64,000 nt of DNA from Pseudovirgaria hyperparasitica (lineage: Eukaryota), in assembly GCA_010093815.1 (NCBI GenBank), contig ML996583.1. One strand, given 5' to 3'. Positions 4,954 through 40,203 of the stretch are shown in pieces. The translations under genes were made by a program, and so were the position numbers. The notes beneath the pieces were generated by a model. It saw only the letters and a list, made by a program, of their open reading frames with translations. It was not told the origin of the DNA and made no database searches. Position 1 is the first letter of the stretch. Each line of letters starts with the position of its first letter.

Positions 4954-5370
4954 TGTATGGTTTCCTGCCGTCCTGAAACAAAGAAGAGGATTGTCTGTTG
5001 GTAAATTCAAATACCACGAACACCATTGCGATGCGTGCAGCAGACTTAACCTTGTGTGGCGTAGTGTGGGGTGCTTGGAGCTTGGGCCACCACATGCCTG
5101 TCCATAGATGCCAGGATGCCTCATGGTTTACGCATGACTTCACTCTCACATTTCGACATCAATACGCGCCTGACCTGTACACGTTCTCCCTTTACCCTCT
5201 TGGAAACAGCCTAATAGCAATGTCTTGAGTCTGATACCTTTCTAGCTGCGTGCTGGCAAGCATACTTACACCCACCATACCACTCTACGAAGCCAGTCAC
5301 GCAGCCACTCTCCTTCCAGACCTGTCCCGCGTCCCTATCCCCGTCCGCGTGCACAACTCTCCTAGACAAC

Positions 5371-8175
5371 ATGATGGCCTCGAATATCTTGTCAAGGCTC
5401 CTCCCCTCTGCTACCGACGAGAACTCAGACCTATTACCTCCTCGCCCACCTCGGTCGTCCACTTCCTCCGATCCTGACAACCTAGAAGCAGCCCTGGACG
5501 AAGAGAACTTAGGAGAGCATTTTGAAGACCAAGATCTGGATCATCTGCTTGCTGAAGCTGCTGGAAGTCAAGCTGACACTGCGAGCACTGCAGCGTCGCC
5601 TGATCGGAAGCGCCAGGCCTTCTCCGCTGGTTGGAAGCCTCAGATGAGCAGGCCGAAATGGATGTCGACCGCGCCGGGACGGGAGCATACTGACGATGAT
5701 GACGATGTCCCGGAATCACTTTTGCTTGAAGCCAGGACAGAAGCACCTCCACGAGTAAATAAGCCTACAAATATCCCTGGACCTAGAAGTGCAGCGGTCC
5801 CTGCATTACCGGGTCCATCGTCACAGCGAACACAAACACAAACACAAACACAAACACAAACACAATGGGACGCTACGCGAGCACATCAGCGCCTTCATAG
5901 TGACGGGAGGTACAAGAGACAGGGAACCAGAATCCCCATGATAAATCAAAGAGTAACGTTAACACAAGATAGAAGAGAAAAGGCTTTGTGGTTGTGGGCC
6001 AATGTTCAAGATTTAGACGCCTTCCTGGTCGAGATCTACGAGTACTATGCGACCAAAGGTATCTACTCGATCATGTTATCGAAGGTACTATGGCTTTTAC
6101 AGGTAGCCTTTATCGTTGCGCTAGGGACATTTGTGTCCTTCTGCGTTGACTTTAGTGCAGTATCACATGAGAAGAAGCTTCGAGATGTTGTGCATGGCCA
6201 ATGCATCCAAACAAGAGTGCACGGCTTCTGGTCCTTTATGCTCTGGATATTATTTGGTGGGTGGTTCTACGCCCTGGCCATATATGTCATCCAGATCCCG
6301 CGGCTTTGGCAGATACACGATTTCTTCCACTTCCTACTGGATGTACCAGATCGCGACATCCAGACTGTTTCGTGGCAGCTTGTTGTTGCCAGGCTTATGG
6401 CACTCAGAGACTCCAATATCATAACTGCGCAGAATATATCTGCCGCCAATCGAAGATTCATTGGTAGCCAGTCTAAAACCCGCATGGATGCACACGACAT
6501 CGCCAACAGGCTTATGCGTCGTGAGAACTATTTGATAGCGTTGTTTAACAAAGACATCCTTGACCTCACAGTACCTATCCCGTTCCTCGGTAGACGGCAC
6601 TTATTTTCCAGAACGACCGAATTCCATGTCAACCTGGCCGCAATAGATTTCATGCTGGATGAACAAGGCCACGTGCATCCTCACTGCCTGTCTGATAAGA
6701 ATAGACACTATCTAATCCAGACTCTCAGACGTCGCTTTGTACAAACAGGTCTCATCAGTATCGTATGTGCTCCCTTTCAGGCGATGTACTTTGTGGTCTG
6801 GTTGTTCTTCAAGTATTTTACGGTACGTGGATTGCCGCCAATGGAAGACACGCGAATTAATCAACCATAGGAATTTCAAAAAGACCCATCCCAGATCATG
6901 GCACGATCGTTCACTCGACTTGCTGAGTGGAAGTTCCGAGAATTCAATGAACTTCCTCATTTGTTCGACATACGCAAGAACATGGCCCTAGGTTATTCTG
7001 ACAGATATCTACAGCAATTCCCGAAAGACAAGACCGAGAAACTCGCAGGTTTCGTGGTCTTTATATCATCAGCTATTCTCGCTGTGCTCGGGTTGGCTAC
7101 ACTTCTCGACTCGGAATCTTTCCTTGGATTTCAGATTACCGATGGACGAACAGCGATCTTTTACATTACGCTCTTCTCAACTATCTGGTACGCTGCTCGG
7201 AATAGCGGTCCACAAGAAGAACCGACGATGGATCCCAAGCTGGCCTTGTCCTTTGTTATCGAGTGTACGAGATACTGCCCGGCATCGTGGACTGATCGAC
7301 TACATACTGATGAGGTCCGTCAAGAGTTCACGACCCTGTACCAACTCCGGCTGGTCAACGTCTTCGAGGAACTACTGAGCATATTTGTAACTCCTTACAT
7401 ACTTATGTACCGGCTTCCAAAATGCAGCGAACGCATCGTAGACTTCTTCCGCGAATTCACCATCAACGTGGACGGCCTGGGTAACGTCTGTTCCTTTGCA
7501 GTCTTTGACTTCAAGAAAGACGTCGAGAATGTCGCACGCATCCGCCCCGACCGGGCGCACGAAGAATCGGGCCTCCGCGACGACTACTATGGCACCAAAG
7601 ATGCAAAGCTCGTCGCCTCCGTCATGGGCTTCCAGGAAACATACGTCACGAACGCCGCAAGTACGCGCCGCTATAATCGCAAGCCCACAAAGTTCCAGTT
7701 CGAGCTACCGCCCCAGTTTGACTTGTACAATCTCTCGGATCCGCAAAAACAGTCCACTATCCGAACGCCACAAATGCGTGGGTTTCAACATACCCCACGC
7801 GTTAACGCACATCCTGGCCGTGCGTCGCCCATGCACTCGATCCTGCTTGATCCGCATCATCAGCCGGCCATGTCCATCATGCGGGGGTCACAAGCTCAGC
7901 ATGCACAGGCGCGCCAGCGTGGCTCACGGCAGCCGTTCAGTGGGGTCGATGAGAGTCCGGTGATCTCGGCGCGGGACATGACGACGAGTCGCATCATCGA
8001 GGAGGATAGTAACCTTGGAGAGTCGTGGCGGACGACGAGGGCTGCGCATGTGGATGAGGATGAGGATGCGAAGGAGATGGAGATACAGGATCAGAGGCCG
8101 GGTGTGTTGGGGCTGCTGTATCAATTTCAGAAGAAGCAGACTCAGGGACGAGGACCCGGCGCTGGCGTGGTCTAG
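5371..8175 (+). CDS. ATG9: Autophagy-related protein 9 (lipid scramblase); intron 6823-6870
   Basis: RMDAHDIANRLMRRENYLIALFNK, AEWKFREFNELPHLF, IVDFFREFTINVDGLGNVCSFAVFDF motifs; in-frame GT-AG intron. Confidence 0.96.
5829..5864 (+). repeat. (ACACAA)n hexamer microsatellite encoding a TQ dipeptide run in the ATG9 N-terminal disordered region
   Basis: aacacaaacacaaacacaaaca... visible; translates TQTQTQTQTQTQ. Confidence 0.9.
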
Positions 8176-16153: not shown

Positions 16154-17701
16154 ATGACTGCTTCCCAGCGCACGCAACGTCCTCAGCGCTCATTCGCAAA
16201 CATGGCCTCCCTATACAACTCCCTCGCCGACCACTTAGGTGTCCCATACTCGGACTTCCCATCACCTCCACCCTCAGTCTCTCCCGCTCCAAGTCTTCAC
16301 TACCCGGAGCACTCCATCTCGCTCCACACGCCCTGGAGAGATCTCGATACCATCCGACCGTCTGCCCCGTCACCTCCACCCCCAATCCCGCGCAAGTCCT
16401 CCCGTAGAGAATCCCTGGGCATGCACTACCCCCCGATCCGCCCACGTCTGTTCAGCGTCGCCTCTGTCGAAGACCTTGGACTGCCAAGTGAAGGCGCGCC
16501 TGTAATGCCTACCTTCATTCGCCGTCATAGTCCTCTTGCGGAGCGACCGCCTGCCAGAATAATGTCTCGCGTCGACTCAGGCATGTACCTCGGCACCTCT
16601 GCCGCGAATATCGGATCTAGCTTAAGATCGAGCTCGACCAGTAGCTCGTCGTCTATGCGATCTGTCGGAAGTAATAAGTCTGCGTCAAGCTTCCAGAGTG
16701 CGAGCGATACCTCTGCTTCGAGTGTGGAGAGTTCTAGTGAGGCGACAGAGTTGTGTCGCAAAGCGACTCTGCCGCGTTACACCCTGTCGGACCCGCCTAT
16801 AACGCTGCTTGAGTCGCCTCCTACTTCAATATCCGTATCTACGACACATGAATCCGTGTCTGTAGTTGCATCGCCTTCTTCATTTTCCTCCCGTGTCAAC
16901 CGTCTGGATCAACAGGAGACCACACCTACCACCCCTCTTCAATCGCCGTCCAGACGTACCTCCTCGTCACTGCCAACGACTTCACCAACATCCTCTCCAA
17001 AGGCCTCACCTAGAGCCTCCCCAAGAGCCTCCCCAATATCCTCCCACCTCTCACCCTCAAGCACACCCCCAACAGCAAGCTCCATACCAGCACGCCTACG
17101 CCACCACACCTCGCCCCAGAAACCTGACCTGCGCAGCCTGCGGACCCAGGACTCCGAAACCAGCCTGCAGCGCGTCTATGAGGCGCAGACAGCCACGTAT
17201 CTAGATGGCCCAGTCTTCACGCCCAGTCCAACCTGGAAGCCGCGATACAGGCGCGTTGTGAGCGAGGGGAGTAGGCCGACGGAGAAACACAAGGAGAAGG
17301 AGAAGGAGAAGAGTACAGAGAGAGTGAAAGAGAGAGTAAAAGAGATGGAGAAGGCCATGGAGAGGACGAAGAGCGGCGACCAGCACCCAAAGGAAAGCGC
17401 CACGCTCAAAGCACCGCGTAAATCCTCACTATCATCCTCATCATTATCACCATCAACAATCACCCGCCCAGAACCAACCCTCACACGTAACCCCCGCCGC
17501 ACAAACACCCCTCTCGCATCCTCGCTCCGAAAACGAGAAGCAGCAGGCGATATCCTCCGTCCCGCGCTCCAGGGCTTCCTGACTACGCCGTCGGAGTTGG
17601 CGCAGAGGCCGCGCGGCAGAGTGAGGTCCAGTATGGCGCGTGGAGATGGGCTGCAGAGGAGAAGTGGGAGGCCGAGGGTGAGGTTTGATGTTGATGCTTG
17701 A
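16154..17701 (+). CDS. Hypothetical Ser/Pro-rich, probably disordered protein
   Basis: Uninterrupted ~515-codon ORF from ATG 16154; PPPIPRKSSRR motif; no recognisable domain. Confidence 0.65.
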   Translation: MTASQRTQRPQRSFANMASLYNSLADHLGVPYSDFPSPPPSVSPAPSLHYPEHSISLHTPWRDLDTIRPSAPSPPPPIPRKSSRRESLGMHYPPIRPRLFSVASVEDLGLPSEGAPVMPTFIRRHSPLAERPPARIMSRVDSGMYLGTSAANIGSSLRSSSTSSSSSMRSVGSNKSASSFQSASDTSASSVESSSEATELCRKATLPRYTLSDPPITLLESPPTSISVSTTHESVSVVASPSSFSSRVNRLDQQETTPTTPLQSPSRRTSSSLPTTSPTSSPKASPRASPRASPISSHLSPSSTPPTASSIPARLRHHTSPQKPDLRSLRTQDSETSLQRVYEAQTATYLDGPVFTPSPTWKPRYRRVVSEGSRPTEKHKEKEKEKSTERVKERVKEMEKAMERTKSGDQHPKESATLKAPRKSSLSSSSLSPSTITRPEPTLTRNPRRTNTPLASSLRKREAAGDILRPALQGFLTTPSELAQRPRGRVRSSMARGDGLQRRSGRPRVRFDVDA

Positions 17702-18464
17702 GGGGGTTGGAGGCGAAGAAAATAGAGACGAACTGGACTCGGTTGGATTGGGTTGAATTAGATTGTATATATATCTATACCCTTTTTAAACGAATGAATT
17801 GGTTGGAGCAGGTATGTCTGTGTTCATAGAAATCGAGCTGAGGTGATCGGCCTTAGTTGCTCGCCGGGCACCTGTCAGGCAGCATTCTAGTCAAGCGATA
17901 TCATTCTTGGATCATTCAGACGAGGAATCGAAGACTATAATGGAGAATTTATGAACTGGATCCATCAACATAACTCTCTATCGCTTTCTTCCCATGGTGC
18001 CTTTTTCTCCTTTTCCTTTTGATCTCCTTTCATCCCTGAGTTCGCTAGAACTATCCTTAATTATTACAAAGTATGTATATATAATGTTACTTTATCAATC
18101 TAAATGAGTAGACCACTTGCATTGTTTTAGTAGATGACTAGGATTGTTTTAGTGGATATGTGTGTTAGTATGGTCATAGTATTACATCTATTGTATTACT
18201 GATTTAGTTTGTCCCGTGGTCTAATTGTTGTACATGGACTACTCGCTCGTGTAGCTATATAGTGGTGTCGTTCGTCTTGTTTGTCGTTGTGGTTATGCCA
18301 CTGCAGTAAGAATCCACTAGATTGGCCGTATGGAATCACGTTATGAGACCGAACATAGAGGCGTTTATCTCCCTATAGGTATAGATAGTAGCAGCAGAGG
18401 CCATTTTAAGCTTCATTTACCATGGGATCTAAGTCCTTAGTCGACCCGTCACCCGTTACCCGTA

Positions 18465-19220
18465 ATTAGTTATCCGTCACCCGCGGTCGTTGATCGAGGC
18501 CGAGGGATCCGGGAACGGGGCGGGGCGCACTACCTGATTGAGCCTTAGCGTCCTCTGTGTACCACAATTGTGGAAAATCAAGTTTTGGAAAGGTTCTTCT
18601 TGACGAATGAAGACCCCGCCTGTGACCTATTTGAGACCAAAGTGTCCAGAGCGATTCCGTAGAGGGGTCGTAATCTTACTTCTTTAGGTGGTTTCGGCGG
18701 TAAGAGAAGAATGTTCACCTTTGATGACATTTGCGGAGTTTGCAAGTAGGAAACAGTAATAGAGGGTCGTGGATCGCTATCTTCCGATCCTCTACTATGT
18801 TCAAACCCTCTATGTATGTTGAAAATCTATATGTAGTGATAGACAAATTAAAAATACTCTAGCTCCAGAGTCCTTGAGTAAGAAGGTACTCAGGATTATC
18901 GGTTTTAGAGGTGAATAAAATGTTTAATTGTAGTAAGTTTCGCTTACGAGATCGACGACGTTTGCATTCCTCTGTTACTATACATTATGCTAAGAAGTCT
19001 AAATCTTACATGTTTCCTTCTATGATTAAATAAGATAGTCCGGGTTATGGATTGTCGTACTTCCGCGCGCAATTCGCATTACTACTACATTAAGTTTTTT
19101 CTTATGTATATCAGCTCTCTACACTCTAATTACTGCTTATAACTAGTATCAAGTAAAGGTGATGTTATAGAGATATACTATTTAGATAATAGCGACATCA
19201 AAGGTGAGATTTTAGTAACA
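18465..19220 (-). pseudogene. Possible RIP-degraded gene or element relic
   Basis: AT- and TpA-rich; one minus frame has only 6 stops over the 200 codons 18481-19080 and reads protein-like; no family recognised. Confidence 0.3.
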
Positions 19221-20143
19221 GGGAGTTGGAACGGCGATCGGTGATTATCTTGGACCACTGTTGCTTGGGCAAACACCACAGTCCAGGGCTTGGGCGTTAC
19301 CCGCGGCGGCGGAACACGTCCACGACCTCCCTCTTCATTCACCATTACTCTACCTTTCATACACCCAACCGCGCCCAACATGTTTCAAGTATAAACGTTG
19401 ACAACCAGCGCCTCAATACTTTTTTTCCCAATCGACGTTGTTCGAATCACCACAGCGATGCGTGCCACCATAGCCACGACTGTAATTGCAACAGGCACCC
19501 ACCTACCAGTCAAAAGTGCTACGGAAGCCAGACGCAGGCATGCGCGTCCGGAGCGAGTGGAGTCGGCAGATTTATTACTGCTTAACACGACGAGCATATG
19601 GTTGCAGCCATGCACTAACAGGGTTGTCCCTATGTCGGTGATGGAGATATCTCCACTATGGACTGTCGCAAACGTGACGTTCTCAGCAGCAACTGACATG
19701 CACTTGACACCGGGCAAGAGTAAGGAATGCAGAGTAAAGACTTTACCGTGAAGCCCGCGATTAATTACTCCATGACCGAGGAATAGTTCAGCCTCGTAGC
19801 CAAAGTCGAAAACGACACGTGATCCGACTCCGAGACCAGATGATATTAGAACCTTGGCCAAACCTCACATCATTCGACCAATGAACGGTTCTGTTGCATT
19901 TTTAATCTTACTAACGTATACTTCTCAATTATAGAAATACTTAGACACTTCTTAATACTATTAATTTGTTTCCATAAGTGATCTCTTTATAGTAAATATA
20001 TAGGATATATTAGTAGTATTTGATAGATATGCTTCTTCCGCACCCCTACTCGATATGTATTCCGACAGATTGATACTCGTAACAGTCGTGGCATATGCAA
20101 GTTAGAGCGTCGTCCAATGATCGATTAAGTTGGCCCGTTAGTG

Positions 20144-20197
20144 GGTGGCCCCGCGCCTGAAAATGACAGTCTCGGTGGCCTCTCGCCTGAAAATGAC
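20144..20197 (+). repeat. Imperfect 30-bp-period direct repeat (GGTGGCCYYKCGCCTGAAAATGAC x2)
   Basis: ggtggccccgcgcctgaaaatgac at 20144 and ggtggcctctcgcctgaaaatgac at 20174. Confidence 0.85.
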
Positions 20198-21102
20198 GGG
20201 CTGAGCTTAGTTTAATGCATCTTGTCTTTTGCCGACCAACACTATTGGCTCCATTTGTCAGAACGACTACCAAGCTGTGCCACAAGATCAGATTGTAAAG
20301 AATTCGTGTATATCCATGTAAAGACAACATTGGCCGAATTCGCCAATGGCATGAGCTGTGTGTGACTGGTTAAGGATGCGACTTTGCTCGGACGAGAGGC
20401 ATGCAGCAGTAGATGCACTATAAAGAGTTGAGGATTCGTCCAGTCTTTCTAGCAATCTATACTCAGCTCTTTCATCATTGAAGGAATCTTTCTCTGAAGC
20501 GAATATACAGACAAAGTTGTGGTGTGTCTTTATCAGTTTGTCTTGTGAACTCTCCTGGTTGTCTTGACTTGCTCCTAAGTCTACTCGTCGTTTATATTGA
20601 CTATCAATTCTACCATCAGTCCTTCACTCATATAGAGCTCACACTTTTCCGGCAAGGCTATACCCTCAGTGACCACCCTGGCAATCGTGCTCTGAGTCAA
20701 CTCTCATCACTGTAACGTCTGCAGTATAGTTGTAAGTTGACTGGCTCCTTCATCACCTGTCACCGGGCTCGATTCGACCGTACATTAATACTCGTCGTCT
20801 AGGCATGAGTATTATCCAAACATTTGTTTGACGAGGACGAAGTCGAGAACAGAGACGGAGTTCTGTCCTCAGCTGAAGCATTATAATATATTCACGCAGC
20901 CCAATACCCTCACGACTGGCGCTTTGAACTCCTTCGCTTCCTGACTATTGAAACATTTTGATCGTCCTCAATTATTCATACGGTTCTTGCAAGCAATCTC
21001 TCGACCAAAGCAATTCCCACAGTGGCCCGTGAGATACGCATCAAACGAAAGCTTGAGCTCGCAGCATTCTTGCTCGCAGTCCAGAAACGAACGCCCAGCA
21101 AT

Positions 21103-22599
21103 ATGTCTCGGACTCTTCAAAGACGACCCATTGAGGCTCTTCCTGCGCCTCAGGTTCGAGACGGCATTGAAATCATTGAAAGCTTTATGAAAAGGTACGA
21201 GAGAACCTCGAGGGATTGGTATGAAAACATTGCACAAAAGGCAAGGAGTACATGCGAAAAGCTACTCGAAGGAAGGGTTGAAGCTATGTATGAGCATCGT
21301 GCGAAAGACCCTAAATCCTTGAGGGATAAGCTGTACAAGAGGCACCCGGACTTTGTCCGTAAATCTGTTTTAGACAGATACGGAACCAGAAAGGCTGTCC
21401 CTGGAAGCGAGAAAGGCTACCGGAACCATGAAGATATCAAAGAAGACGTCATTGACTTTGCTGGAGTTCGAATCATCATCTACTTCCCTCACGCGGACCA
21501 ATGGAACGTCGTTCACTCAATGATCAAGAACGCCTTCGACGTCCGCAAAGAGCCAGAAATAGACGATATTGATAGCGCAAATGTCAATCTACTTTATCCA
21601 GGCCTCAAGAAACGACATTATCGTGTCAATATTCGAGAAGAAGAATTCGAGACAGGTCACGATCCAAACGACATCTGCGAGATCCAAGTTCGATCTACAG
21701 CCATGCACGCTTGGGCAATGATTAGCCACAAACATTTTTACAAGCCCCAAGATGATTTCACGTTAAGTGGGGAGGAGAAGGACATACTGATCAGTCTCAA
21801 TGGCCATGTACACTCACAAGAGTTACTCCTTGGGCATCTGTGGGAACTTAGAAGAAACCGTGTGACACCTTTCAGAAGTAAACACGAGCTCGGAAAATAT
21901 CTGGAGGACAACATACCTCAACCGGAAGTGAACTTCGAGCGGAAACAGAAGATCAAGAGCAATAACCGCGACATCAAATTGATATCAAACAACGGGACCC
22001 TAGAGATCCTTAGAAGATTCCTGGAGTTGGCTGGCAAAGACACACCAGAGAAATTGGAACCTGTGCTCCAGAGTCTGGACTTTTCTGATCTCAAAGCCGA
22101 GAATGATAGCCCTAGAAGGATGATCAAAGACCGATTCTTCGCACACCAAAAGCTCAAACCGTCCGTGTACATCATCAAACATATCCTGGATAAGGAACGT
22201 TTGGCAGGCAGTGCTATAAAGTATCGCTACACACGGTATAGTTCCTATTCGGCTAAATTTGCCGTTGTGGCAAGCTCTCTCAGCTGGGTCCATAAACTTT
22301 TCATGGAGTATCAGATCATCGAGGAACTTCTTTGCGACAATGAAAATCAGCACGAGTTCGCAAAGTACATGGATTTCATCTACAATTCACCTGACCGAAC
22401 CACTATTCTGGAACACACTGAAGAGGATATGTGTACTCCGCAGCATAAAGCAGCCATCGATGGCTTGTGGGAATGGTTCGAGAAACACGAGAGTCCGGCA
22501 TTTGCCTTGGTTTTTGAAATCTCCAGGATAGGGGTACTCGAAGATCTTCCTAGGAATCTTTCAAAGATATTTTTTTCGATAAGATATACATCACAGTGA
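21103..22599 (+). CDS. RelA/SpoT-family (small alarmone synthetase-like) nucleotide pyrophosphotransferase domain protein with C-terminal extension; intronless CDS
   Basis: Ordered RSH synthetase motifs HRAKDPKSLRDKL (21295), DFAGVRII (21454), PGLKKRHYRV (21598), EIQVRS (21679), MHAWAMISHKHFYKP; first in-frame ATG at 21103; no HD hydrolase domain seen. Confidence 0.9.
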   Translation: MSRTLQRRPIEALPAPQVRDGIEIIESFMKRYERTSRDWYENIAQKARSTCEKLLEGRVEAMYEHRAKDPKSLRDKLYKRHPDFVRKSVLDRYGTRKAVPGSEKGYRNHEDIKEDVIDFAGVRIIIYFPHADQWNVVHSMIKNAFDVRKEPEIDDIDSANVNLLYPGLKKRHYRVNIREEEFETGHDPNDICEIQVRSTAMHAWAMISHKHFYKPQDDFTLSGEEKDILISLNGHVHSQELLLGHLWELRRNRVTPFRSKHELGKYLEDNIPQPEVNFERKQKIKSNNRDIKLISNNGTLEILRRFLELAGKDTPEKLEPVLQSLDFSDLKAENDSPRRMIKDRFFAHQKLKPSVYIIKHILDKERLAGSAIKYRYTRYSSYSAKFAVVASSLSWVHKLFMEYQIIEELLCDNENQHEFAKYMDFIYNSPDRTTILEHTEEDMCTPQHKAAIDGLWEWFEKHESPAFALVFEISRIGVLEDLPRNLSKIFFSIRYTSQ

Positions 22600-24399
22600 T
22601 GCAGGTTCAGGTTCAACAGAGGTGTATATCGGATTCTCAATACATTATGACATTCAAGTCTGCTGTGTGGGTCTAGACAGAGATTCCATTATGAAGAACT
22701 ATCATATCTCCTGCGTACATGAGATGAACGAGTCCCTTCGCCATTTGTACTGGAAATAACAGAAATTTATCTAGCTTTGTTTCACTAGGCCTTGAACCAG
22801 TTCACATGCAATCGTGGGAACGCCCACTAGACCAATCCGACTCAAGGATTCCCACAGGTAGAAGCCATTAACTGGTCATAAGGGACCATGCGCTAAAGAC
22901 ACTACCAAGTGCCCACAGAATGTGTGTGGTAATTCTCTGCATTTAGATCCTGGCTAACACAGTGTGGACGAGCATGTAGGCTATCTCCATGCTCAGCAAG
23001 TCAAGCAAGAAACAGAGCGGTGGAGATTTTCGGTAGAGGCTTACCGAAATGCCCTTTAGTCTCGAAAGTACCACTATTACCTCGGAGGCTCGGACACACC
23101 TCAGAAAGGTATCGACGCTGCCCTCAATGACCCTTGTCCGGTCTGACACGGATGGTGAGTTTCAGTACAACCCATGGGAATACACTGTTTCGTCTCGAGT
23201 TAAAAGCTATTAAGCTTTGAACTTAGAGTCAAGTTACGCATAATTTTTTCATTTCTGCACTACTCAAGGCGTTGCTCGGAGAGGAGCTCATGGATATTTG
23301 GTGTCGACTAGGCTCCAACCGAGCTCCAATGGAGCTACGGTTCGAGGGCAACGGCATAGACAGACGGTCAATAGCCTCATAGAATCCAAATTCTATTGTC
23401 ATGTGTAGGTTATGAAAATATGAGGGACTACGAAATCTGACGATCTGTTGGTATTACTTGCAATAAGGAGTTGCAGGGATGAATGAAGTAAAGGGACGTG
23501 CGAGTAGATCGAGATGACCGTTACGTCGCATACCTGGCTTTCCCACTTTTCCGTCATTTACCGATGTCGCATTCAGATTATGCTTAAATGGAATTGCCTA
23601 CCCACTGTGCGAAGTGAGGTAAACGAAACATCAACGAGAACGGGATGTTGGACCACACGTTGGCCTGCACATTTCTCTGCAGAACCCGTGATTACTGTAA
23701 GTGCGTCTGACAGGAATGAGCAGCGATGGTATAATGCTACCGGTCTCTGTATGATTGCGTGCAGACGCTGGAATATTACTACTTCCGTGTTAGATGAAGC
23801 TTCTGAATACTGCTATGTCTAGTTGGCACAAGTCTTCTCGGTAGACGAGGCAACTCGTGAAGAAAACTGTATCCTTGTGAGCTCGGGTGAGCTCATTAAC
23901 CTCAATCAAAGCATACCTGGGTAGGATCATCGGTCGTCATTCGTATTCCAGAGTATGTCATTCGTACTCCAGAGTGTGGTGCTGTTTGTCTGTCCCTAGA
24001 GCTGTAAATATGAAATCCAGTTGTGATGGCGGCAATCACGCTTCAGGCAAACATTGTGTGGAAATGATACTCCAAGGTTGGTCCTTCGTAGCAGGGACTA
24101 TGATCAGTCATATCACCAACCTGTAACAGAGTCTCCGTCAGTAGTAGTACTATGAATATATATATATAGAGAGAGAGCGCCGAGGGAGTTGACGGTCTAT
24201 GTTCAATGGTCTGATCAGACAAGACGAGCCGTCAGTCGATAGTTTTGATAGTCAGAAGTGGCTGCCATTAACTCGCATACTAAAGTGCCTCGTTCGAAGT
24301 CTAGCATACGAGTGGCCATACGCATGTCAGTTCTGAACATGGTGTCACCCTTTCTATATATAACATGTATTGTGCAGCCGTGTCCATTTTTGACCAACG

Positions 24400-27300
24400 T
24401 CACCTTTTCTTACTGCCTCGTCCGCCGCGACTACTCTTCACTCCTTTACCTTTACTGCCACCCTTACCACCACTGCCCTTGCCTCCCCCCACTCCACCTC
24501 CTTGTACAACTCGAACCTTTGCAACAGGTACAACGCCATAGACTTCAGCTTCTTTCCAAGCTCGAATGGCCTCAATTTCTCCCGGCCACATACGTTCGGT
24601 ATCTTTGCTTTCACGGTCGACGTTTCGAGGTTCTTTTGCTGCAATCTCCCACTTTGAAAGGATGTCCTTAACTGCTTTACCCTTCTTGACTGTCCCGGGC
24701 TGGAGCTTCACTTTGTATTTGTAGTTTGATAGTGCGGTCCAAGGTGCACATACGGGCACCGCAAGTACGATGGAGTCTGCAGGGTGAGGTCGACCGATGA
24801 AAGCGTCTAAGGGTGTTTGCATTGCAGCGAGTTCTTCGGCAGTTGGTTCGTAGTTGGCAGGCTCCTGGTCAGTGGCAGCACCGGTTTTGTCACCACCTTC
24901 AGCAAGAGCAGCACGGCGAGCTTCTTCTGCTGCTTTACCTGCTGCTTGTGCGCGTTGATGTTGCTCTCTTCGCCGCTGTTTTTGAGCCTGTGCTTCTTCT
25001 TCTTTAGCTTTTTGATCGGCGACCTTTGTTGTCTGCGCACTCTGCTCCACGGGTTGAACTCCCAGTAGGCGCAGTGCAAGGGCACGATCCTCTTCGTCCT
25101 GTTCACCATACTTTGCGGCGAGGCGTTTGGCTTTGCTGCGTTTCCCTCTTGGAAGTTGCTTGGTGGGCTGGGTGGCAGTGTTCGAACTAATAGCTGTGGT
25201 AGACTGTTGCTTTGACTGGACTTCATCCTGCGACTCTGTCGTACTCTCTGTGCCGCTTTCTATATGTTGATGCTCGGCTGTCTCTTGCTCACCCTTGCGA
25301 ATGTTACGTCGTTCACGTGCTGTACGGTATTTTGAAATATCATTTCCTGACTCTTCTGTAGTTACCAGGTCACCCAACGCTCCGGACATGGTAAATTTCC
25401 CTGCATCGTCTGCAGCGCCAGTCTGCTCGTCAGAGGAATCGTCGTCAGTGGAGGGTTTCTCAGGCCTGACAGATGATTCCAGTGGGTTATTACGCGCAGG
25501 TCCTCGAGTCTCTGTGTCCTCATCATCATCTGAGCCAGAGTCAAGTCTATCGTCAGGAAGTTCACCGTCACTGTCGCTAGCAGGATGTTTGATATTGCGT
25601 ATGCCGTTTTCGGCTTGACCTGCGTCGAGATCTGTACCCTCTTCGGCGTCTTTCCCAGCCTCGCTCCCAATGACACGGTGCTTAATGTGGTTGATTTTGC
25701 TCTCTTCTGTGATCTGGAACATTACCCCAAACCCAAGAAGTAGCTGCGTAGGAGGCAAAAAGTTTTTCTTGCCAGTGATATTGAAGGCCCCCACAGGTAG
25801 GTACTCGCCGGTTCTACCAAGCTTGGTGACCTGATCAAAGTTCACCCACCACGCTGACATCACAGCTTTTGAGTCCCAAGCTGCAGACGTGCATACACAC
25901 AAGTGACCAGCTTGTGAAAGGGTTGACGGCGGTATAGGGGCATCAGGTGTGGACGCAAGATTCTTGATGACGAAAGGAGACGCTCCGTGCAAGTCTGCAT
26001 ATACGTACACATCCCCTTTCTTCAAGTGTCGCTGATAGATGAGTTCGTTCTGTTGAACGTCTTTACCACCAACAACTAGGTAGCCGTCTGACGAGATGAA
26101 ATAGGTAAACTTCTCAAACCAGAATTTGCCACGAACAGGCCGCAATACTTCTTTTTCTTGCTGTAAACCCTTCTTGAGATCGGCAGCAATCTTCTTCTCC
26201 GTGTTTTTCAGTGCCTTGCCTAGTGACTGAGCAGTCTTTTCCTCTTTGACTGCTGCGTTCTTCTTTGCATCGAAATACTCGTTGGCGTTCTGCCACGGTG
26301 ATAGTCCCAAGTTGATATCAATGGCCAGCCTCCCGTCTTCTGGTGTCAATAGCGCCTTCTTCCTGTTGGCCCCTTCCGGTTCATCCTCACTATCAGAAGT
26401 TGGCTCGGTAGATGATGAGTGGTAACCTTCTTCATCACTCTCTGCGTCGTATGTCTGCTCAGCAAGCAATAAAGTTACCGTGTTCTCGTATAGCTTGAGG
26501 GGAAGCTTGATCATATGAGCCACTGTGTTCCCCTGGGCCTGCTCTCGCTCGATCAAACGAGCTATCTCGACCCAATCCATACCTTTTTCAATAAGACCAT
26601 TTACTGCGCCCATGGCTTCGTGTACACGTTCGACATTGGCTTTTATTGCGTCTGCTTTGCGTATGTGGAGCTGTTGAGCATCTTGTAGTCCACCTAGACG
26701 TTTTGCATGGTCTTCTCGCGCTAGTTCTAGTTTTCTTTTGGCTGTCGCTTCGCGTTCTTGTAGCCGTGTTTCGAGCTTTTGGCCTTCGATAGACGAGAAG
26801 AACTCATCAACGGTCTTGTTGAAACCCTCAAACTCGAGGAATTCGGTTTCAGTGTTGTCCTCAAACTGCTTAGGCCTGAAGGGGTGGAAGTCATCATACA
26901 GTATACTGCTAGAAGATCCACCAGTATCGTTCTCCCCCTGGTGCGTTGAGGTTCGTTTGGCGAGTATAAAGCCTTTTGCGCTGTCTGCGCTAGTGATGTC
27001 ATTTATCGTTTTTCTAGCTTCTCCAAACGCCAACATCAGCTTATCTAGCGCATCATCGTCGTCAAGAATATGATTCGGCTTTATGGTCGAATCGAAGCCT
27101 GTAACCGTGAAAGCATGGTCCATGAGTAGCGGCGGAAACTCCGCGATAGAGGTTGATAAAGCTTTTCTTAGCGCATCCTTTTCTTTGGCTTTTGATTTCT
27201 TGCCCGAGGCAGCATCCTTCTCCTGTCGCTGGATTGCCTTTTGTAACCCAGCCTTGATTCGTTCCTTCGTTAGTGGTGGCACGCCGCCATAATTTTGTCG

Positions 27301-27863
27301 CATGGATATGTCATATTTGAGTCCGGCGCGCAGCTGCTCATGTTCCTCGCCTTCACTGACAGATCGCCACAGTGCCAGTATCTTCAAGTCCGCATCGGTC
27401 AATATTATGTTACCTGCTGCGTAAAATTCCAAGTACAATCGAAATATCCCATCCGAAAATTGGAACTCTATGACTCGGTCCGTGCCAACTTGAGCTACTG
27501 AGGTCACTCTTCTGGTTCTAAGTATCTTTCGTAGGCGTTCCGTGAACGGGGAAGGTTCGGTCGCAGTCGTGCGCGCATATTGGGTCAGATGGCAGCGGAA
27601 GCCCGACTCGATAATTAGCTGTTCTCGCTGGCCGGGCTTCTGAAACTTGATCAGAAAGATACGCTGAGCATTGTTAGCCTATTCATTGGACCGATATCGG
27701 TTTACAAACAGATGATAAGTCGTAGATGTTCTGAACTCGTAAGGAACATAGACTTTTTGAGAGTTCATGTGCGATGACCTTGGCAGGGAAGATTAGCTGT
27801 GGTCATCGTGAATGCGGGCAAAGGCCGTACAGTAACATCTAAAGAGGAAAATCGTTGTTTCAT
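24400..27863 (-). CDS. RQC2: Ribosome quality control subunit Rqc2/Tae2/NEMF (NFACT family); introns 27779-27830 and 27664-27709
   Basis: MKQRFSSLDV, RVQNIYDLS, LYLEFYAAGNIILTD, FWFEKFTYFISSDGYLVVGGKDVQQNE, AVPVCAPW..L.NYKYKVKLQPG..KKGKA. Confidence 0.95.
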
Positions 27864-38346: not shown

Positions 38347-40203
38347 TCACGACCTCCGCACAACCACATCCACGCCAAACCCCGTGTCCAAGTCCACCCA
38401 ATGCTTCCTCTTGCCCGCCTTCTCCACGGCACGCACCTTGCCCTGCACATCCTCCGTCCACAGCGCCGCGCCCTCAGGACCGTGGAGCTCAAGCTCAAAT
38501 CGCACAGTTGCTACTTTCCTCTTCTTCTCCTTCTCCTTCTCGCCCTTCCCCTCCTTCTCCTTTTCAACCCTACCCTCCCCACCCTTCTCCCCATCACCAC
38601 GTACAACCCACCCAGCACTCAACCTCGCCACATCCCCGACCACAACCCCAGCAGGCCACACACCCCTAACTACGCCCGCGACACGGCCCAGATACATAAC
38701 CCACCACGCCTTAGCCGCCGGCAAGAGACGCACAAGACTAGTGTAGAACACCAGATCCGCGCCTGTCAGCGCCTTACGGCCACCGTAGCTCTCACACAGT
38801 AGTACGGCCAGCTCGGCGCGACGCACGTGCGAGAGGCCGTGTGTACCGGCCAAGGCGCCCGTCGTGGTGCTGCGTAGTGCGGCTGCGGCGCGGACATCGC
38901 TTGGGAGGGCGGCGTGCATGTATAGTGTGCCGGCAAAGGCGGATATGTCGGCGGGGGTGTATGGGCAGGTGAGCTCGCCAGGGGTGTGTGTGTCATGAGA
39001 CGGGATGGCGTGGCTGAGGATGGGCGCGAGGAGGTGTGCGTGCGGTGGGGCAAAGGGGGCACTGGCGACGTGCAGCGGGTCCTGAGTGCGGATATCGTTT
39101 GCGAGCTCGCGGAATAGGGTGCCCTCGCGCACGCCGCCCTGAGCGAAGAAGACGTCTGAAATGGTGGGGAGGGCGGCGAGGAGGCATTCGACCAGTAGGG
39201 CGACGGCGGGGACTTGGGTTGCGCGGCGGGCGCTCACGCGGAAGATGGCGCTGTGGTCGTCGGACACGAGACTTGCGACGGCGGATGTGATGGCGGATGT
39301 GTTGTAGAAGGCTGCGGGCGCGATGCGGAAGCCGTTAATCAGGGGGATCGGATATGGCTGGACCGGGTGTGTGTGCATCTGGACGAAACCCCAGCCGCGG
39401 AAGCCGCCGCCGGAGAGATATAGATTGAGACCCTTCCCGTCGGCGTCGGCCAGGAGGTGGTCTGGAATCCCGATTGCGTGCACGGCGTCTTTCATGGCGG
39501 TCGTGATCTCGCTCTTGAGCGCTGCGACTGCATCTGCGCCGGACGCTTCGGCTTCACGGAGCCGGCGCAGGAGCGCGGCAGCACCGTACGGCATGCTGAC
39601 GGAAAACTTGTCGCTGAGGCTGACCTTCTCCGGATGGTCATGGTCCGGGAACACGAGCCAAGTGATCTGAGTTGAGCCGCCTCCGAGATCCATGACGAGG
39701 CCGCGAACGGCGTCAAAGGAGGATGCCACGCCGTATGCGCCGACGAGCCCCTCTGTGTCCTTAGGATACATCTCGACGTCGAGGCCAGTCTCATGTTTGA
39801 TGCTTTGCTGGAGTTCGACGGAGTTCTTTGCGGTGCGTGTTGCTTCGGTAGCGACGATGCGGACGTTGGACTTGGGGACGCCAAAGGCAGCACAGGTGCG
39901 TTGAAAGGCCTTGAGGGCAGCGGTAACCTCATTGATGGTGGACGAGGGGATGGGAATAGCGTCGGAGCCCTGCCATTGGGCGTCGTAGAGGGAGATGCCG
40001 GTGCGGTGTTGATAGATGACCGGGAGGATACGGGCGACTTCAGGGGAAGTGTCAGTGATCGAGAAGCGTATACCATTACTGGGAGATCTTAGTATGAACA
40101 AGGACAATGGTTCTCAACCCAACATGGAGGGATGACAATCGGCTTACCTGCCCATATCCACTATAGCCTTGTAGCCAGGCTTCTCAACAGGGAGATGTGG
40201 CAT
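38347..40203 (-). CDS. RTG2: Retrograde regulation protein 2-like Ppx/GppA-family protein; intron 40079-40147
   Basis: IVDMGS|NGIRFSI, IVATEATRTAKN, GLVMDLGGGSTQITW, SMPYGAAAL, LYLSGGGFRGWG, YPIPLINGF, FAQGGVREG; orthologue versus paralogue not resolved. Confidence 0.88.

Follow-up and report, generated by a model that had tools for sequence, protein, structure and literature searches.

What is a RelA/SpoT-type synthetase doing on a fungal chromosome, and what might it use as its acceptor? The question is raised by a gene in a 64-kb stretch of DNA (the window, within which all positions below are counted) from Pseudovirgaria hyperparasitica, a Dothideomycete of the order Acrospermales and a parasite of rust fungi. 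The gene, at 21103..22599 on the + strand, encodes a protein of 498 amino acids (aa) that we call P0001. We consider P0001 best explained as a divergent member of a two-part family of small alarmone synthetases (SAS), with an effector-plus-sensor design gated in cis and an altered acceptor site, a joint reading to which we give a probability of about one half.

The gene is real and intact. Its start at 21103 is the first ATG in a stop-to-stop frame that runs over 20962..22599, and a protein identical in all 498 aa is recorded in NCBI and UniRef, which means that the public gene model has no intron either. Relatives align with it end to end, over residues ~23-492 (best P0005, E 3.5e-58, 39% identity). 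An initial annotation of this DNA had described an intact, intronless coding sequence (CDS) of ~498 aa, belonging to the synthetase class of RelA/SpoT homologues (RSH), with the synthetase motifs in order, no hydrolase domain and a ~250-aa helical C-terminal extension. These points are borne out. All of the motifs can be located in the translation: R66-A-K68-DPK-S72-LRD-K76 (RAKDPKSLRDK, residues 66-76), D118-FA-G121-V-R123, H172, E193-I-Q195-V-R197, H202-A-W204, and H209-KHF-Y213-K214. Both of the C-terminal stretches that had been quoted are also present, PFRSKHELGKYL at residues 256-267 and LRRFLELAGKDTPEKL at residues 303-318, and the extension measures ~245 aa and is all-helical in an AlphaFold2 model. 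However, the annotation missed one feature of the G-loop, in which His172 is present but the Tyr expected four residues ahead of it (canonical GYRSxH) is Leu168 (GLKKRH). The parts of the gene are as follows.

21103..22599, + strand: complete, intronless CDS of P0001, ATG to stop, 498 codons plus stop
21103..21861, + strand: N-terminal SAS (RelA_SpoT synthetase) domain, residues 1-253, from Pfam, fold and profile matches
21298..21342, + strand: predicted ATP-donor phosphate-binding motif R66-x-K68-xxx-S72-xxx-K76-xxx-R80, from conservation and the equivalents in RelP and FaRel2
21454..21471, + strand: D118-xx-G121-x-R123, with the predicted Mg2+-binding Asp and adenine-stacking Arg; D and R are found in all non-gapped rows of a 238-sequence alignment, and the roles come from the RelP and FaRel2 papers
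21595..21618, + strand: predicted G-loop (acceptor site), residues 165-172, Y-P-G-L168-K-K170-R-H172, with Tyr changed to Leu relative to the canonical loop
21679..21693, + strand: predicted catalytic strand E193-I-Q195-V-R197, with E193 and Q195 invariant in 232/232 family rows
21868..22092, + strand: helical subdomain or 'neck', residues 256-330, common to bacterial homologues by hhalign and hidden Markov model (HMM)
22093..22596, + strand: distal helical module, residues 331-498, fungal-type only and without recognisable fold

Residues ~20-253 are a genuine SAS domain. RelA_SpoT (PF04607) is the sole Pfam family found in P0001 (E 2e-12, 47.8 bits against a gathering score of 27, residues 81-216), and it is also matched by 40/40 aligned relatives; Pfam finds no HD hydrolase, TGS or ACT domain in the protein. 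An AlphaFold2 model of the whole of P0001, made with 40 full-length relatives, has a mean predicted local distance difference test score (pLDDT) of 83 and a predicted template modelling score (pTM) of 0.75. A long N-terminal helix (16-55) and a helix at 223-254 belong to the SAS domain. In a VIA-align comparison with solved structures, residues ~20-253 of the model match RelQ of B. subtilis best (5dec_A; Z 15.9, root-mean-square deviation (rmsd) 2.5 A, 180/188 residues, model range 29-253), followed by RelP of S. aureus (6ewz_A, Z 15.7) and of B. subtilis (6fgk_A, Z 14.6), with rmsd values of 2.5-2.7 A for RelQ/RelP. Lower matches are to Rel (8acu_B, Z 11.5), an exported Streptomyces SAS (10.8), CapRel (10.1), Tas1 (9.0), and FaRel2 (6.7), and Rel, SpoT and RelA are matched at Z 7-11.5. 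SAS entries fill the first 40 ranks of a Foldseek search with the same model. A profile of the family finds RelP 6fgk among PDB sequences at E 7.5e-13, and CapRel at E 0.0034. Profile and structure therefore both confirm the synthetase identity. P0001 carries a synthetase domain alone, without HD, TGS or ACT domains, as does an SAS, although at 498 aa it is longer than is typical. It is not a member of the YjbM equivalog as modelled by NCBIfam NF053588, on which it scores 29.1 bits, below the cut-off of 320.

We searched 1.84 billion representative proteins exhaustively with HMMER and found 919 family members at E<=1e-3, 434 at E<=1e-10, and 9 at E<=1e-30, many of which align over residues ~23-490 of P0001. 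With separate HMMs for the N-domain and the C-domain, both made from a 40-sequence alignment, 160/168 relatives match both, and more than 150 of the 240 C-domain positions are covered in only 72. The named full-length relatives come from Cenococcum geophilum, which has two distinct members, and from Neofusicoccum, with two distinct members in N. ribis. A scan of bacterial and archaeal genomes, one per species and with an eight-sequence alignment as the source of patterns, gave 424 pattern matches, and tblastn bore out 370 of them. The counts of bacterial lengths, neighbours and HMM matches given here refer to the best 80 of these 370 stretches. Over residues ~7-283 (in a few cases to 313-374), these share 29-40% identity with a fungal member, and their hosts span more than ten phyla, including Clostridia, Actinomycetota, Acidobacteriota, Pseudomonadota, Spirochaetota, Chloroflexota, Planctomycetota, and others. 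Among the proteins from bacteria the median length is 437.5 aa and the range 226-596 aa, some being clipped at contig ends. As judged by these matches, P0001 belongs to a two-domain family that is common to ascomycete fungi and bacteria.

The donor site and the catalytic residues appear to be intact in P0001, with their roles taken from the structures of RelP and FaRel2. In S. aureus RelP the ATP donor is reported to be held by Arg78 and Arg112 (adenine stacking), by Lys80, Ser84, Lys88, and Arg91 (phosphates), and by His190 (ribose) (excerpts of PMC5794853); the residues listed for FaRel2 are R64, K66, S70, K74, R77, and D90 (excerpts of PMC11782079). By alignment, the counterparts in P0001 are R66, K68, S72, K76, K79/R80, D118, R123, and H209. 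We compared these positions in an HMM-guided alignment of 238 catalytic domains, comprising 59 fungal-type sequences, 93 other representatives, 80 bacterial loci, and 6 canonical or divergent outgroup SAS. The donor counterparts, together with E193 and Q195, are kept in P0001 and in every non-gapped row, and R66, K68 and K76 are conserved in all non-gapped family rows and in 6/6 canonical SAS. The donor and catalytic set as a whole (R66, K68, S72, K76, D118, G121, R123, E193, Q195, H209, Y213, and K214) is complete in P0001.

The acceptor site is different. The G-loop column holds Tyr in 237/238 sequences and Leu in P0001 alone, and GLKKRH of P0001 aligns opposite GYRS[LY]H in three pairwise alignments with solved SAS. 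Lys170 is likewise unique to P0001, at a column where the family otherwise has Ala or Gly. A third change, Arg197, is found within the family only in P0001, where the residue is otherwise V/M/I (fungal-type) or A/G (bacterial); the same Arg is present in 6/6 canonical SAS outgroups and restores the canonical EIQxR. The G-loop Tyr stacks the guanine of GDP/GTP and is described in excerpts of PMC5794853 as 'critical ... in all (p)ppGpp synthetases', and Y128 of FaRel2 is the equivalent base-coordinating residue (excerpts of PMC11782079). This residue, by which a (p)ppGpp synthetase may be recognised, is present in the family as a whole and replaced in P0001. Since the purine-stacking Tyr is missing, P0001 would be expected to use GDP/GTP poorly. 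Efficient use is doubtful, and probably either the acceptor has changed or catalysis has been weakened. Elsewhere in the N-domain, P0001 is off consensus at 11/41 columns that are at least 90% conserved, compared with a fungal-type median of 5; only 7/232 family sequences depart as much or more. In the C-domain it retains 19/22 columns that are at least 70% conserved. The alignment suggests a divergent, structurally maintained protein, in which the donor and catalytic site would be intact and the acceptor site remodelled.

The C-terminal half of P0001 consists of 13 helices in the AlphaFold2 model. When residues 255-498 are folded alone, with 57 sequences, the result is again all-helical with 13 helices (pLDDT 85.4, pTM 0.85). 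This half matches no Pfam or NCBIfam family. Comparison of the C-domain model with solved folds by VIA-align gives a best Z of 4.6, with none of 48,161 chains at Z>=5; Foldseek finds no match at E<=0.001 in either PDB or BFVD, and in the Atlas search TM scores do not exceed 0.37, with a feature score of 0.76. Scores of this kind are noise for helical domains and should not be taken as proof of a new fold.

Profile comparison divides the C-terminal region in two. When the fungal C-domain profile is aligned by hhalign with the bacterial post-synthetase region, positions 1-114 are homologous (probability 98.5%, E 2.1e-15) and the remaining ~125 fungal positions have no bacterial counterpart. Similarly, the fungal C-domain HMM is matched by 76/80 bacterial proteins over its first ~50-118 positions only. 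By these profiles, the first ~75-110 residues past the catalytic domain, which we call the neck, are homologous in fungi and bacteria. What follows the neck is variable. The distal module is absent in bacterial forms of 318-337 aa (e.g. L005 and L011), consists of tetratricopeptide repeats (TPR) in forms of 587-596 aa (residues ~313-584 of L004), and is an unrecognised segment of ~130 aa in the common form of ~437 aa, while P0001 and its full-length relatives carry the fungal-type helices. Mean pairwise identity among 40 full-length sequences is 35.6% in the catalytic domain and 26.4% in the neck, and it reaches its lowest value, 22.4%, in the distal module.

A tree of the catalytic domain (64 rows, 218 columns, LG+C20 with posterior mean site frequencies (PMSF), 200 bootstrap trees) was made with an outgroup of five canonical RelP/RelQ-type SAS from the same bacterial genomes (three genomes). 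The family is split from these canonical SAS with 100/100 support, and the branch that divides them measures 2.94 in the quick tree. Clustering by label, fungal-type or bacterial, is strong, with 3 changes where the minimum is 2 and the shuffled mean is 24.4, and 0/200 shuffles are as low. A single fungal-type clade is found in 2% of the 200 bootstrap trees. However, the approximately unbiased (AU) test does not reject fungal-type monophyly (p 0.826), and the constrained tree lies 15.6 log-likelihood units above the quick free search. P0001 has a terminal branch of 1.13-1.44, compared with a median of 0.49, and neither it nor P0114 is stably placed. The root of the family tree falls within the unresolved region. 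The initial annotation had raised a possible bacterial origin for the gene; the close bacterial kin at 33-40% identity fit this suggestion, but such an origin is not proven, as the tree gives no direction.

In bacteria the family member is an additional gene. Each of the three bacterial genomes examined also has a long frame of Rel type (747-776 aa) and, in addition, short RelP/Q-type frames (261-293 aa), one or two in number; the family member is therefore an extra paralogue rather than the housekeeping synthetase. No gene next to it recurs in more than 14/80 bacterial loci. The neighbours met most often are aspartokinase, a flavoprotein, a large serine recombinase, and malic enzyme, and these reflect closely related genomes. 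The 80 loci give no hint of a toxin-antitoxin pair of genes, and the lack of a conserved partner fits a self-contained single-chain unit.

Three features of individual bacterial loci deserve mention. In 12/80 loci (L001 and 11 others), the large serine recombinase, a protein with Resolvase, Recombinase and Zn-ribbon domains, is encoded upstream in divergent orientation, which suggests a mobile-element setting in one Clostridia subgroup. On a contig of a Treponema metagenome-assembled genome, one open frame (L029:184-1770) joins RelA_SpoT to part of a penicillin-binding transpeptidase and then to a PASTA domain; the arrangement is either an unusual fusion or an artefact of assembly or of a frameshift. 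A 652-aa frame in a Nocardioides genome (L089, genome G003) has a divergent RelA_SpoT domain at residues ~326-519 and a long branch, and belongs neither to canonical RelP/Q nor to the family of P0001.

The reading that we favour can be put as a mechanism. The N-domain would bind ATP-Mg2+ through the donor site (R66, K68, S72, K76, R80, D118, R123, and H209) and would use E193 to move the beta,gamma-pyrophosphate onto the 3'-OH of an acceptor ribose. We infer this transfer from ATP to a 3'-OH for P0001 from the residues that it retains. The C-terminal region would gate the activity of the N-domain in cis, and the variable distal module would bind a ligand or a protein, in what would be an effector-plus-sensor design rather than a housekeeping stringent-response enzyme. 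A role of the C-terminus of P0001 as a sensor or autoinhibitor is plausible. Regulation in cis is suggested because the distal modules are exchangeable (TPR included), because identity declines along the chain, because the gene stands by itself in bacteria, and because there is a precedent in CapRel, in which a C-terminal domain gates a toxic SAS (toxSAS) (excerpts of PMC11782079).

Several considerations weigh against this reading. The argument for control by the C-domain is one of architecture only. RelQ and RelP are the nearest solved structures, and the fold comparison may thus leave a plain (p)ppGpp synthetase role open for the whole family. The 11/41 changed columns may point to a possible relaxation of constraint in the lineage of P0001. 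Tyr165, three residues upstream of Leu168, might stand in for the lost Tyr. Finally, the 'fungal-type' label derives from architecture and a few named records, most of the other relatives being metagenome proteins. We regard as quite improbable, and offer only as speculation, a bolder joint reading in which the family would be an immune or signalling module of ascomycetes and bacteria that is independent of NOD-like receptors (NLRs). The neck would keep its pyrophosphokinase inactive until a non-self or stress ligand is bound by the fast-evolving distal domain, and the product would be not (p)ppGpp but another nucleotide 3'-pyrophosphate or a modified RNA end. P0001, without the purine-stacking Tyr and with two extra basic residues in its acceptor pocket, would then have been retuned to a new acceptor.

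Other explanations assume a different activity. P0001 could be a cell-death or defence toxin of the toxSAS type that, once triggered, would add pyrophosphate to the CCA end of tRNA or produce (pp)pApp, with the C-domain serving as fused antitoxin and sensor as in CapRel. Such a toxin would agree with an effector fused to a variable C-terminal module (TPR in bacterial relatives), with the serine recombinase found upstream in some bacterial loci, and with the within-genome paralogues of Cenococcum and Neofusicoccum, which are expected for diversifying immune-type families. It would also agree with the acceptor pocket of the family, which is unlike that of RelP/RelQ because the Arg of EIQxR is missing and GYRS reads GYxA. 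However, the non-toxic RelQ and RelP are nearer to P0001 than CapRel is by both fold and profile, and nearer than Tas1 and FaRel2 by fold; no conserved antitoxin-like neighbour was found in the 80 bacterial loci; PADLOC gives weak matches only, to an unnamed candidate model, PDC-S33 (P0001 E 0.004); and the window open reading frames (ORFs) that were scanned include no recognisable NLR or HET gene. Nothing in the PDB search, whose chains included those of CapRel, matched the fold of the C-domain, a result that points neither way. We therefore think a toxSAS unlikely, if still a serious competitor. The nearness of RelQ and RelP in fold and sequence speaks for an ordinary (p)ppGpp synthetase that gives a bacterial-style alarmone signal, in which the C-terminal helices would serve oligomerisation only; this is their function in RelQ/RelP, where they form the oligomerisation interface (excerpts of PMC11782079), and nearly all family members retain the Tyr, His, Glu and Gln that belong to the acceptor and catalytic site. 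Yet P0001 itself lacks the guanine-stacking Tyr and scores 29 bits against 320 as a YjbM equivalog. The family stands apart from RelP/Q (100/100) and is an extra paralogue beside Rel and RelP/Q in bacteria, its variable C-region of ~245 aa (TPR in some) far exceeds an oligomerisation helix pair, and the fungi listed with divergent SAS in excerpts of PMC3153485 carry no RSH hydrolase to remove the product. An ordinary synthetase is accordingly very hard to credit.

Loss of function would account for P0001 in another way. The copy may be inactive or decaying, having lost acceptor binding through Y168L, and be either a pseudoenzyme kept for scaffolding or binding or a gene drifting under relaxed selection. 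The changes at 11/41 highly conserved N-domain columns and the long terminal branch are what such a copy would show, although a long branch is also expected because the organism is isolated in the databases (Rqc2, encoded next to P0001, is only 57% identical to its nearest relative). Against decay, 498 codons are still open, all donor and catalytic residues and 19/22 conserved C-domain columns are retained, and the models of both the whole protein and the C-domain are confident (pLDDT 83 and 85.4). Furthermore, the radical changes are clustered in the acceptor site (Y168L and A170K in the G-loop, and Arg197), more like a local shift than general decay. Inactivity seems to us about as improbable as a toxSAS. 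By comparison, bacterial contamination or a very recent horizontal acquisition is effectively refuted. Bacterial homologues are 33-40% identical to fungal members, and the GC content of the P0001 gene (0.452) is below that of its neighbours. However, the low GC is due to second codon positions (GC2), that is, to amino-acid composition, and GC content at third positions (GC3) is 0.506, within the range of 0.457-0.728 seen in 12 neighbouring coding frames. A single contig of 839,468 bp holds the gene together with COG6, ATG9, Inp1, Rqc2, RTG2 and kinesin genes on both sides, the protein has the fungal-type distal domain that lacks a bacterial counterpart, and neither flanking repeats, beyond two short tandem pairs, nor mobile-element ORFs were found. 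A divergent SAS, gated in cis and with an altered acceptor site, remains the explanation that we prefer.

The genes around P0001 are those of a core fungal chromosome, not of an obvious accessory island. Pfam families are matched by 15/21 large window ORFs scanned, and the genes so recognised are COG6, ATG9 (two frames), formamidase, Inp1, Rqc2, RTG2, a HAM1-like gene, malic enzyme, kinesin, a major facilitator superfamily (MFS) transporter, a GPN-type ATPase, and a NIF3-like gene. The following gene adjoins that of P0001.

24400..27303, - strand: Rqc2, with NFACT/Rqc2 domains, from Pfam

The initial annotation had called the P0001 gene accessory. This is not supported, as core fungal genes lie on both sides, GC3 is within the range of the neighbours, and the orphan look of P0001 is matched by Rqc2. 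The closest relatives of P0001 are 39% identical, but those of the housekeeping protein Rqc2 are only 57% identical, and the orphan look is explained by poor sampling of the organism. There is no compositional sign of transfer for the gene. Among sequencing runs, two contig sets from one study contain the locus and no RNA run does, which carries no information on its expression. No tRNA was found near it, and the only repeats are the two short tandem pairs. For ~3.4 kb upstream and ~1.8 kb downstream there is no Pfam-recognisable ORF; 12 small ORFs in these flanks gave no Pfam match, and none is a mobile-element ORF. The flanks (17700-21100 and 22600-24400) are unusually long to be without a Pfam-recognisable ORF, and their local GC is 0.34-0.52, compared with 0.50-0.58 in neighbouring genes.

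Two other genes in the window are of separate interest. An RTG2-like gene at 38347-40110 on the - strand, ~16 kb from the P0001 gene, has a Ppx/GppA domain (PF02541, 119 bits) and an RTG2_C domain (186 bits). The Ppx/GppA family includes bacterial pppGpp phosphatases. The RTG2-like protein is a conserved fungal regulator, and nothing ties its gene to that of P0001. ATG9, at 5218-8175 on the + strand, reads as two adjoining frames, 5218..6870 matching positions 1-265 of the Pfam profile and 6871..8175 matching positions 266-478. One in-frame stop separates them, and it may reflect an error of sequencing, an intron of very small size, or a real disruption.

Synthetase-only RSH proteins in fungi are not new, and here the initial annotation overstated the novelty of its find. 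According to excerpts of PMC3153485, a divergent group ('divRel') was reported in 2011 in the ascomycetes Aspergillus nidulans, A. fumigatus, and Gibberella zeae, fungi described there as having no RSH hydrolase, and a subfamily 'FunRel' was later named by Jimmy et al. (excerpts of bioRxiv 10.1101/575399). The gene of P0001 would not in itself surprise RSH specialists, and the copy may be atypical or weakened as a representative. The new elements are the anatomy of the family, in which a catalytic domain is followed by a neck that bacteria share and then by a distal module that can be exchanged; a sister group among bacteria, with the culturable genera Paenibacillus, Nocardioides, Ralstonia, and Lutispora; and a unique Tyr to Leu change that provides a natural variant of the acceptor site. 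Together, these three make the function directly testable with simple constructs. In the full-text literature, which excludes most subscription journals, we found no product, function or experimental study for a fungal RelA_SpoT protein, whether stand-alone or in an NLR.

The RelA_SpoT domain also occurs at the N-terminus of fungal NLRs, as an effector domain (Dyrka et al. 2014, PMC4986451). A survey of Sordariales found few RelA_SpoT NLRs, of which 14, stated to be 82% of them, are of the T-NACHT type (PMC12258605), and a 2023 review treats RelA_SpoT as a minor, intriguing clade among fungal NLR effectors and describes what these metabolites do in fungi as 'poorly documented' (PMC10197012). 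P0001 shares with these effectors the same Pfam domain and its occurrence in Pezizomycotina. In contrast to the NLRs, it has no NACHT or NB-ARC domain and no ANK, WD40 or TPR repeats by Pfam. A search for NLR-fused relatives among longer proteins, although a weak one, gave no matches at E<=1e-3 in 414 candidates.

Among enzymes of solved structure, P0001 is most like RelQ (SAS1/YjbM, 5dec) and RelP (SAS2/YwaC, 6ewz and 6fgk), which give the best fold and profile match and have the same donor and catalytic residues. It differs from them in the motifs of its family, with GYxAxH in place of the GYRSxH of RelP/Q and EIQ-V-[V/A/G]-S in place of their EIQIRT, in the separate clade (100/100) and low equivalog score (29 against 320 bits), in the extra C-region of ~245 aa, and in Leu168 of P0001 itself. 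With CapRel (7ztb/9erv) it has in common a pyrophosphokinase of the RelA_SpoT fold that carries a C-terminal region in the same chain, for which a regulatory role in P0001 is only proposed. However, CapRel, FaRel2, and Tas1 are structurally farther from P0001 than RelQ/RelP are, and the helical C-domain of ~245 aa matches no solved fold in the searches made. The bacterial SAS-TPR proteins (L004, L045, L055, L057, L064, and Atlas clusters) have a homologous catalytic domain and neck, and their distal repeat module is of a protein-binding kind; unlike P0001, they have TPR as the distal module and a bacterial host. The divRel/FunRel proteins agree with P0001 in taxon and architecture, being ascomycete synthetase domains without a hydrolase, and P0001 may be one of them. 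The excerpts cited for them mention no neck with a distal domain, no bacterial sister group, and no Tyr-less G-loop. Set beside these systems, P0001 would seem to be an atypical addition to a kind of protein already catalogued in fungi.

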